A DNA stretch of 64,000 nucleotides from Chrysomallon squamiferum (Eukaryota; Animalia; Mollusca), in contig CM022672.1 of the NCBI GenBank assembly GCA_012295275.1, forward strand, positions 21,948,001 to 22,012,000, written 5' to 3'. Every line of letters starts with the position of its first letter. The first letter of the stretch is position 1. The notes below the pieces were generated by a model. The model had not been told where the DNA came from. It did no database searches and saw nothing but the letters and a program-made list of their open reading frames with translations. A program made the position numbers and the translations under genes. Below, one piece after another: positions 50,801-53,800 of the stretch.

Positions 50801-53800
50801 AATAATAATAATATCCAAAAAAAAAGTATCATAATTATTATTTTTATTCAAAAACATTTTAAATTAAAATAAATCCTTTTTGAACAGCCTTCCTGTGTTT
50901 ACTTACAGAATATTAATTATTATATTAATAAGGATTTATTTAAATAGTATTTTACAGAAATGGCTTCATAGAATAATACATGATGTGTAAAATTCATCAA
51001 ATCATAATAATAATAATAATAATAATAATAATAATAATAATAATAATAATAATAATATTTGATATTTAGTAAGACTAGCTCATACATATATAAAAAATAA
51101 ATTATATCTGGAATGTGTAAGGTGCATAGAAATTTAGAATTTTATGTTAGTTACAAAAGTGCATTTAAAAACAGTAAAATTAATGTGAAAGTCACAAATT
51201 CAGTAAAAGAAGAAAACAATACCAAAATGTTCTATGAAATATTTGTTCAATGTTAAGGCATGCCTGTTAACAAAATGTTAAAATATTCGGAGACATTTTC
51301 TACGAAATCTGGTTTCATAATTTAATAATTATTGTTTAGTTGAATTTTATATGCCTTTCTGAATCAGTATCTAAGATTCTTGTTATTTAAAATTGTTGGA
51401 ATGTTTGTGAAAATTGTCATGATTTTTCTATCAGTAATTTTTTTAAATTTTGATTTACTAATTTTTTATAAAATTAGTGCATACTATATTCTAGAAATTT
51501 AAAAATATATATAATGAAAATGGATTAAAAAGTAAAGGAAGATACTATATTTTTAAAAAAGCAAAATAAATATTGGTTTCAAAAATAGATAAAATAAATA
51601 TAAAATAAATTATAAATATTTCAGAGGTGAAAAAATAAAACGAAACTGTCTGGCTTTAAAACTGACTTTAAATCTACTTGAAATTATTTCTTTTCTGTTA
51701 AATGATTATAACATTTTCATATCACTACTCATACACAAACAATTAATTCATATATAAAGATATGTGTTGGTTCTAATCTAGATGTGTATGCAGGGATTAC
51801 ATATAATATAGATACAATATCATATCATGATAATACATGTACATATATCAGTCTTCATGCATAATACAAATAAGTAATGAATTAATATATAAAAGTGACA
51901 TACAGATTTTGCTTAAAAATTCAAATGTGCATGGTTGCAAGCTAGGTTTCGCAAACCAGGGATTTAAACTCTATTTATTTTAAACCCGAATACGTATTCA
52001 TACATAAATTTTTTTATTTTTTCTCCCTTAATAAGCTGTTAAATAATTCAGGAAATGGGAATAATTTATAATACTGTTTGCTAGGAAATAGAGCAAATAT
52101 TTGTTATCAATAAATTTTATGTCTTTACCATGGAAGTCTAAACTTTGTTTCTTAACAAATAAGAAAGGAAATAAAATGTGTAGAAAGTGCTCATGCTGGA
52201 CTAGTCAAACTTCCAAAGGTTATTAGATTAAAAACAAAGAAATGAAAAAATAAATTAATGAATAAAAAAAGGTTTCTGTAAAAGTATTAATGGATAAGAA
52301 AAGATTAAAAAGGTTATAAAGAAATATGTAAAAAAAATAAATAAATAAGAAAGACAAAAATAATAATAATAATAATATTAATAATAATTCTTAGAAAATG
52401 GTGAAATATCTAAAACAGGAGTGCAAATCATCCAAAGTATTAAATAGTTGAAACAATATCCGACCAACTGGCTTGCTTGGAAACCTATTATTACCTTAAA
52501 GGACTGAAAGAAAGTCCACAGAAGTAGTCGAATGGTTTTTCCCTGACGCAGCAGTTTCACAAGTCGGGCTGCACGGAACAGCCGAAAGAATCCAAAACTG
52601 AACCGACGTCCCTGTAATTTAAAAATTTAGGTATTTTTTAATATATGACATGGATTGCATACCTTGAACGACTGGAAGAAAGTCCACAATAGCAGCCGGA
52701 TAGTATAGCCCTGTCGTAGGAGCTTAACGATACGCAGAGCTCGGAACAGTCGGAAGAAGCCCCAGCTTAGAATCCCTACCTGGAAATGGGAATACAATTA
52801 TTGGTGAAATCAGAAAACAGCGTTATTGAAATACTTACCTCGTAAAGCATGAATTGCAAACAATGAAATGGAGTTCAAGAACCCATCTCTGAAAAAATCC
52901 ATCTTCGGTCGACAGTTAGGTGTACACATTTTCATTTTACTGTGACGTGATTGGCATTATTACAGTATAAGATAAATATAATATCACTAAAGTATGACTG
53001 TGTACCAGATATATATGTAAGTTATTATTTTATAATTTCTGTTCTGTTCCTCATTAAAAAAAACCCCCAGAAAATTCAGAATAATAAGATGAATTATTTT
53101 AATCAGACAACACACAGAAACAATCTCTCACAAATATTCTGTCTATACACAGAAACTAAGATATTCTTCAACATTAATATTTTAAAATCAAATAATAACA
53201 ATATACATGACTGAAAATAATACAATGAATAAATGAATGCATGACTGATGAATGGTACATAAAATATTCTTTTGATGTTAACAGTTATTAGATATTTATC
53301 TTGTTATTTTGTAATAATGTAGAGAAAAGTACACCCAGTGCCATATCAGTTACACAGTACTATCAGTTAACCTTTTCAATGCATAATTAAAAATAACTGC
53401 CAACAAATTCAACAAGATGGCTGCACATAGTGGACTCATACAATGTTTGGGAGACTCTGGGAGTGGGTGTCTGTTTCTTGCAGCACAACAAAGAATTGTG
53501 TTTTTTTTTTAAGGCTGTGGGGTAAATGCACTTTCCACAGTTAATGATAATAAATTTTTGACTGGATATATCAGCTTATTGCAAAGAAAGAGTTTAATAA
53601 CAAAAGCACTTTCAAAGTGTCCTATGTACAAGAAAACTTATATAGTAATCTTTGGTGTACCAGTTATGTACTCTGGTTAGAAGTAAAAATAACTGAAAGG
53701 GTACACTAAGGAGGACTGATCGTATAATTTTATAATAATGTAAAGAAGGTATCAACTGCCATATCAGTTGTAGGCTATTAACAATTATTAACAAAAGAAC

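Follow-up and report, generated by a model that had tools for sequence, protein, structure and literature searches.

In the Cav2 alpha-1 gene of Chrysomallon squamiferum, two neighboring exons, A and B, each encode the S4 voltage sensor of domain IV (IVS4) together with its flanking linkers. With a probability of about 0.65, the two are read here as a lineage-restricted, mutually exclusive pair in which A is the minor form and exclusivity is likely steric. B is the main spliced form in the available RNA contigs, while A appears there only in unspliced RNA. Sequence comparison indicates that both copies are old and were long maintained as protein, and that A, not B, is the variant that departs from the otherwise near-invariant Cav2 sensor. 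The features discussed are collected in Table 1.

Table 1. Features around the domain IV sensor exons, in positions of the window
Feature	Position	Strand	Description and support
Exon A	52663..52779	-	IVS3-S4 linker, IVS4 and S4-S5 linker; judged derived by comparison; W6, L15, I17 and ancestral Y25; unspliced RNA coverage only
Exon B	52495..52611	-	Default IVS4 exon; RAARLV, derived K25; joined to both neighbors in RNA contigs of X3 and X4; orthologue of the Gigantopelta form
A-B intron	52612..52662	-	51 nt; GT..AG; 22% GC; in-frame TAA upon retention
Upstream constitutive exon	54747..54830	-	IVS3; Aplysia exon 34; 84 nt, phase-0 donor; spliced to B in RNA contigs X3 and X4
Downstream constitutive exon	48077..48142	-	IVS5; Aplysia exon 36; 66 nt; its start matches the overhanging end of the B contigs
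IVS1-S2 loop/IVS2 exon, first alternative	59599..59709	-	Aplysia 33a/33b pair; joined to exon 34 in X4 RNA
IVS1-S2 loop/IVS2 exon, second alternative	58123..58251	-	Aplysia 33a/33b pair; homolog matches
Donor-like site GAG/GTAAGT	52833..52841	-	GT 59 nt above the A acceptor; matrix score 11.1; candidate decoy repressing A

The exon pair and its gene

The window is the whole stretch of DNA that was analysed, 64,000 nucleotides of contig CM022672.1 (positions 21,948,001 to 22,012,000), and it is AT-rich, with 18-36% GC per 2 kb. Its minus strand holds the 3' part of a Cav2 alpha-1 gene, beginning with domain IV at 62081 and ending with the C-terminal EDDWC at 16949; domains I-III and the full selectivity ring fall past the edge of the window. 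Exons throughout this interval match the Cav2 proteins of Gigantopelta and Haliotis and follow the order domain IV, GPHH/EF hand, IQ region and C-terminal DDWC, an order that was also checked on the homolog. The DDWC at the C-terminus of the channel is presumably a synaptic PDZ ligand. Among the homologs tested, the nearest is Gigantopelta aegis Cav2 (summed tblastn score 2056), followed by Haliotis (1657). The sequence-only reading of this locus had assigned the pair to the domain IV S4 of Cav2, and alignment to solved structures bears this out: IVS4 scores 43.9-45.4 bits against the Cav2.1, Cav2.2 and Cav2.3 chains and 29.2-32.2 bits against L-type chains. Topology was taken from alignment to the solved human Cav2 chains and from established knowledge. 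The exon numbering follows the Aplysia exon table in the available portion of its source (PMC10657410), by which 54830-54747 is exon 34, the A/B pair is exon 35 and 48142-48077 is exon 36. RNA contigs and homolog matches place the flanking junctions at 54747 and 48142, exactly where they had been predicted.

A and B are each 117 nt long, begin and end in phase 0, are flanked by AG and GT, and are translated without a stop. They are identical at 31 of 39 residues and 78 of 117 nt, and the gating charges R10, R13, R16, K19 and R22 are common to both. The original description of two 117-nt phase-0 exons with good splice sites and all gating charges is confirmed in its coordinates, lengths, AG/GT borders and five charges. 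According to a splice-site matrix derived from 15 other exons of the gene (leave-one-out ranges 1.2-10.7 and 3.0-12.7), the acceptor and donor of A score 9.3 and 7.7 and those of B 7.2 and 6.5, all inside the range of the gene's other exons. The spacer between the exons, which measured 51 nt again, is an outlier, as none of the 14 other gaps measured between exons of the gene is shorter than 435 nt. Replacing A with B exchanges a neutral linker (VGILSW) for a basic one (GRRFSF), RALRI for RAARL, and Y25 for K25.

Several further features were observed in the window. Both forms of the upstream IVS2 pair (59709-59599 and 58251-58123) are present in the isoform sets of Haliotis, Patella, Pomacea, oysters, mussels, clams, scallops and octopus. 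Further downstream on the minus strand, 35335-35105, 29108-29013 and 26279-26166 are additional C-terminal channel exons with weaker or lineage-limited matches, probably optional like Aplysia exons 45-48. The last coding exon (17852-16949, minus strand) matches homologs in two blocks, 17852-17727 and 17725-16949, which are mutually out of frame; the break near 17726 may reflect either an indel in the assembly or a true frameshift. Downstream of the channel gene, at about 550-5160 on the same strand, lie motif-bearing exons which, from those motifs, we take to be beta-hexosaminidase-like.

Divergence of the two copies

Over codons 7-39, A and B differ at 4 first, 1 second and 23 third codon positions. 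The proportion of synonymous differences (pS) is 23.0/27.6 sites (0.83, past the Jukes-Cantor limit) vs. a nonsynonymous proportion (pN) of 5.0/71.4 (0.07); for all 39 codons, the values are 0.84 and 0.14. The lower 95% bound of pS is 0.64, which corresponds to a corrected dS of at least 1.46, and the contrast between pS and pN has a Fisher p of 4e-13 (rounded counts). When random decay was simulated at 20% per site, three or fewer residue changes without a stop were obtained in 0.01% of 20,000 trials; at 30% and at 40%, they were obtained in 0/20,000 trials. Exon A has a GC3 of 0.64 inside introns of 0.22-0.26 GC. Since synonymous sites are saturated while pN is 0.07, both copies were kept as protein for a long time, and on these sequence measures A and B are old duplicates. 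The earlier proposal that differences rich in third positions reflect selection on both exons holds as a pairwise statement (pS 0.83 vs. pN 0.07): two sequences cannot assign changes to a branch, exclude a very recent loss of A, or show present-day constraint.

The same gene supplies a contrast in a copy of a pore-loop exon at 45580, which is identical to its source at 83/87 nt and in which 4/4 substitutions are non-synonymous. This copy (45580 to ~45490, minus strand) is a recent, decaying duplicate of the domain IV pore-loop exon at 47236-47145 and lies out of order in the intron after 45844; its acceptor is retained and its donor is lost.

Comparison with other channels indicates which copy has changed. 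The IVS4 motif was matched in 301 of 315 fetched homologs; Ala-Ala precedes R3 in 301/301 of these, and RALR occurs in 0/301. Among 17 gastropod exons compared, Ala15 and Leu17 are found in all 17 and Tyr25 in 16, the exception being Gigantopelta, which has Lys25 in 11/11 isoforms. B also has Lys25, and this shared residue identifies B as the orthologue of the normally expressed exon. A, on the other hand, is off the gastropod consensus at W6, L15 and I17. By this comparison A is the derived variant, in which the near-invariant Cav2 RAARL has been replaced by RALRI. A nevertheless retains Tyr25 and the gastropod-type columns FF/V/L/F, from which we infer that the duplication took place after the gastropod-type exon sequence was fixed and before the Y25K change common to B and Gigantopelta. 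A duplication of that date predicts that Gigantopelta has, or has had, an A exon. Lys at the QGY position is also found in another Cav2 (P0020) and in a divergent locus (L022:2501-2617), which indicates that the Y-to-K change arose more than once.

The sequence-only reading had taken B for the special variant, one that adds two Arg and a Lys. This view has to be reversed, as B matches the sole form found in the 11 Gigantopelta isoforms, including the Lys. The emphasis on the linker Arg residues of B was likewise misplaced: linker residues 1-4 are free to vary from one gastropod to another (ASSV, KRQV, SKQF), so the two Arg are not a conserved feature, and it is A that alters S4 itself. The residues of A are not foreign to calcium channels. 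RALR is the domain II S4 pattern of human Cav2, RAMRII occurs in one representative (P0452), and in a metagenome scan (47 of 49 loci parsed) the residue before R3 is Leu in 13/13 Cav1-like loci and Ala in 34/34 Cav2-like loci, where Cav1-like means likeness to the solved L-type chains. Because its substitutions occur in natural channels, A resembles a functional S4 of a different type rather than one that is damaged.

RNA evidence, exclusion and alternative readings

Ten runs share sequence words with the region, among them RNA runs of other organisms (X5-X9, word share 0.06) and one DNA run (X10). The RNA evidence consists of contigs from four RNA runs of one organism and one study (X1-X4), with a depth of ~4-8, in which rare variants are lost. 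In contigs from two of the four runs, X3 and X4, exon 34 is followed by B and B by exon 36, and the X4 contig extends back into exon 59709-59599. X2 yielded an unspliced contig of 383 nt that corresponds to 52454-52836 and spans A and B with 0 differences. X1 has no contig over the pair despite the presence of all sampled words, which is ascribed to filtering. Junctions of A of any kind are absent from the contigs of 4/4 runs, a shallow set from one study in which X1 has no contig here; the A-B joint is likewise absent from these contigs, in which A shows no joint of any sort. B is therefore seen as the main spliced form. Given the low depth and the loss of rare variants, the contigs do not show that A is unused. 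Of the junctions predicted for the two exons, those of B were recovered in 2/4 runs and those of A in 0/4, from shallow contigs. Two other features of the contigs were set aside. The X2 contig ends at 52836, beside the donor-like site, but contig ends are not interpretable; and its 0 differences, compared with 9 substitutions per ~690 nt in three nearby intronic contigs, were not used, as single haplotypes are not interpretable either.

The X2 contig also bears on whether the pair is real. An assembly artefact, in which haplotypes or paralogues were collapsed, had been named as a possible explanation of the pair; it is largely refuted and hardly credible now, as this contig comes from an independent RNA library and matches both exons exactly, and as the exons differ at 39/117 nt, far above allelic levels.

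Joining A to B would preserve the frame and place two S4 helices in tandem. Since both exon lengths are multiples of three, nonsense-mediated decay cannot remove such a message, and the exclusion is likely to be physical. If the intron between them were kept, A + intron + B would contain an in-frame TAA. In an intron of 51 nt, a branch point that keeps 15 nt or more from the AG can be no further than 36 nt from the donor, which leaves too little room for U1 and U2 to bind together. The only motif in this intron that resembles the branch-point consensus has its A at position 36; this branch point is predicted, so the donor distance is at most 36 nt. The steric threshold from donor to branch point is given as ~50 nt in the accessible part of a study on vertebrates (PMC7969005). 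On the other hand, introns of ~40 nt are spliced in C. elegans, according to the accessible text of another source (PMC4165533), and by that standard an intron of 51 nt may be spliceable. No minimum intron length for gastropods was found in the literature; the minimum of 100 nt for Mytilus comes from a size-biased set. Steric hindrance is, on this analysis, the likely basis of A/B exclusion. The proposal that the short intron enforces exclusivity sterically gains from a spacer under the vertebrate threshold and loses from the short introns spliced in C. elegans.

Other mechanisms were considered for the same interval. Competing RNA pairing near the exons gave a z of +1.43, with 92/100 shuffles folding equally well, and the 25 longest of 174 inverted repeats were AT-rich and 70-85% matched. 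On these two results, RNA structure of the docking/selector type is not supported as the exclusion mechanism. Upstream of A, at 52833..52841, stands the single AGGTAAGT of the window, both strands counted, where ~1 per strand is expected by chance (our own estimate from base frequencies). As a post hoc lead, this donor-like site could hold A off by the same donor-acceptor geometry. This consensus donor terminates a GC-richer intron stretch (52833-52960, minus strand; 0.38 GC, reached by 2.8% of 290 intron windows), which is a candidate for a decoy site or for a small poison exon whose acceptors are weak. A third, decayed copy of the exon in 52839-52960 was rejected, as its similarity to A, B and exon 34 was matched by 351, 444 and 191 of 500 shuffles. 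Recursive re-splicing by way of the GT with which A begins is poorly supported, the regenerated donor scoring only 2.2.

The lack of A junctions in the contigs of the four runs, together with the lack of an A isoform in Gigantopelta or the other isoform sets examined, would suit an exon that functioned for a long time but was switched off lately and has just begun to decay, with only B now used. A further point in that direction is that, within codons 5-39, A departs from the gastropod consensus three times, once at a near-invariant Ala, and B only once. However, both splice sites of A score equal to or above those of B, its frame and gating charges are intact, its GC3 is 0.64, and its substitutions are conservative and found in natural channels. 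The change from Ala to Leu takes two changes in one codon, and the Gigantopelta isoform set is shallow, lacking the second IVS2 exon. Recent silencing of A is unlikely on this balance. It is still more doubtful that A serves mainly in unproductive splicing that controls the amount of channel, be it through retention of the 51-nt intron, a small upstream exon ending at the donor 52839, or use of A as a stepping stone to B. Such a role would make sense of the in-frame TAA in A + intron + B, the unspliced contig over A and B, the consensus donor that precedes A by 59 nt within a stretch of 0.38 GC, and the GT with which exon A starts. A poison or stepping-stone exon, however, needs no conserved S4 protein; the candidate acceptors of the upstream exon score 1.3, 0.2 and -11.9, and the regenerated donor 2.2; and the unspliced contig is possibly pre-mRNA or DNA.

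A very improbable origin for A is a late copy from a second, diverged Cav2 paralogue, in which case the synonymous saturation would measure the age of the paralogue. Some gastropods do carry several Cav2 genes (three clusters in Biomphalaria), and this gene already holds another displaced exon copy. However, a Cav2 with RALRIV is absent from the fetched proteins, Gigantopelta has one Cav2 cluster among the 120 matches listed, and the exact tandem position with both splice sites fits a local duplication better. The mutually exclusive pair with a minor A is the reading retained here. A bolder form of it may be entertained, tentatively and as a whole: that this is a second, independent origin of sensor swapping in Cav2, in which a neuron- or tissue-specific A would put a Cav1-type RALR S4 into domain IV, A would be repressed by default through the donor sites 59 nt above the acceptor of A and 51 nt above that of B, and the combination of 33a/33b with A/B would give four interchangeable versions of sensor IV, built from two S2 countercharge helices and two S4 helices. 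As part of this form, A may sit unannotated in other gastropod genomes.

Distribution, known systems and predicted effect

The A-type exon is absent from the isoform sets of Gigantopelta (0/11), Haliotis, Patella, Pomacea, Biomphalaria, Lymnaea and Elysia, as well as from those of oysters, mussels, clams, scallops, octopus and squid, with large clusters sampled in part (15/21, 15/42, 15/32, 15/185, 15/59, 15/27 and 15/33 members). None was found among the best 150 of 604 representatives at 50% identity (148 parsed), in a search with each exon against proteins of 78-2000 residues, or in a region search among the 120 matches listed of 4642. In the metagenome set, a tandem second copy was seen in 0/49 loci, none of them gastropod-type and 25 of them with a GT donor and at least 300 nt on each side; a scan with gastropod-type patterns confirmed 0 of 593 matches. 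The Aplysia table, in its available portion, lists exon 35 (IVS4) as single from transcript evidence (PMC10657410). Protein clustering and annotation depth make the absence of the A-type exon a weak negative. The same isoform sets display the IVS2 pair and so are able to reveal alternative exons in this region, while the Gigantopelta set, without the second IVS2 exon that other molluscs express, is thereby marked as shallow. These comparisons favor treating the pair as lineage-restricted, although hidden copies may exist elsewhere. A search for the pair in related species gave no example in the protein, representative and metagenome sets, all weak negatives, the Gigantopelta set being the shallow one.

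The closest likeness is to the IS4A/IS4B exons of Drosophila cacophony, which are also two equal-length alternative S4 exons in Cav2, with one form abundant and one sparse, and also lineage-restricted, as the accessible part of the source describes IS4A/B as absent from vertebrate Cav2 (PMC11828482). The same part places the cacophony exons in domain I, with a length of 99 nt, differences at 13/33 residues and in one gating charge, and distinct currents and localisation in vivo (PMC11828482), whereas the snail pair lies in domain IV, is 117 nt long, differs at 8/39 residues with equal gating charges, and would have originated independently. Orthology was rejected because the pair maps to domain IV and not domain I; it works like IS4A/B without being the same pair. 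Tandem duplicated S3-S4 alternatives are also known from vertebrate sodium channels (exons 5N/5A and 18N/18A). In insect sodium channels, exons 27A-D of IIIS3-S4 are tandem duplicated sensor exons of the same kind, as far as the available text describes them (PMC3805903). Unlike the snail Cav2 pair, the sodium channel S3-S4 exons lie in domains I and III, are deeply conserved and are functionally characterised.

Splicing also alters the linker ahead of IVS4 in other channels. The NP insert of Cav2.1 and the ET insert of Cav2.2 are cassettes in the IVS3-S4 linker. Such inserts are optional and confined to the linker, whereas the snail A/B choice swaps S4 and the S4-S5 linker too. In bivalve Cav2 isoforms, an optional insert of 10-16 residues is observed in the IVS3-S4 linker. 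Exon 29 of Cav1.1 acts on the extracellular side of sensor IV through IVS3-S4 linker splicing, with S4 and S4-S5 unchanged in the account available (PMC8099428). In Aplysia, the 33a/33b exons of ApCaV2a1 form a mutually exclusive pair in the same domain IV sensor, with differing use in sensory neurons; as described in the accessible part of the source, they cover the S1-S2 loop and S2, are unequal in length, lie kilobases apart and are mollusc-wide (PMC10657410). For the mechanism, parallels are offered by exons 4a/4b of OGDH, where exclusion is steric with a donor-to-branch-point distance below ~50 nt (PMC7969005, in part), and by the steric mutually exclusive exons of C. elegans egl-15 and let-2 (PMC4165533, in part). 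Those systems have mapped branch points or introns of 14-30 nt, as opposed to the 51-nt intron and predicted branch point of the snail. No prior description of alternative IVS4 exons in Cav2 was found in the literature, where coverage of subscription journals was thin; the pair is apparently new in this respect, S4 swapping and 33a/33b being already known.

On the preferred reading, A would be a minor alternative, restricted to a tissue or stage, that alters the behavior of voltage sensor IV. With A in place of B, the basic GRRFSF linker would give way to the neutral VGILSW, the residue before R3 would be Leu where B has Ala, the residue after R3 would be Ile where B has Leu, and the S4-S5 linker would again begin with Tyr. 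We predict that sensor IV would then differ in its voltage dependence or its kinetics, with what is probably a modest effect on channel opening. IVS3-S4 splicing shifts the activation of Cav1.1 by 30 mV (PMC8099428, available portion). In human Cav2.1, VSD-I drives opening, while VSD-IV moves earlier and may be regulatory (PMC12019389, available portion). If VSD-IV is regulatory and not the opening sensor, the effect of a switch may be small, and the gating change from A is expected to be real but modest. Of the earlier suggestion of switchable domain IV gating, the S4 exon pair is present, while the gating part may amount to a modest effect, VSD-IV of human Cav2.1 being reported as regulatory (PMC12019389, available portion).

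The significance of the pair is limited by its narrow lineage, by the unspliced coverage from which A is known and by a gating effect that is likely modest. Its interest comes from the constancy of the segment that it alters, for Cav2 IVS4 hardly varies over a range that extends from sea anemones to humans (all 301 motif-matched homologs have Ala-Ala before R3). In human Cav2.1, VSD-IV moves early yet does not drive opening, and a natural, selected variant of IVS4 in the same gene would be a ready-made test of the role of sensor IV in Cav2. If the reading is true, there have been at least two duplications of an S4 exon, affecting different domains, among invertebrates that have one main Cav2 gene.
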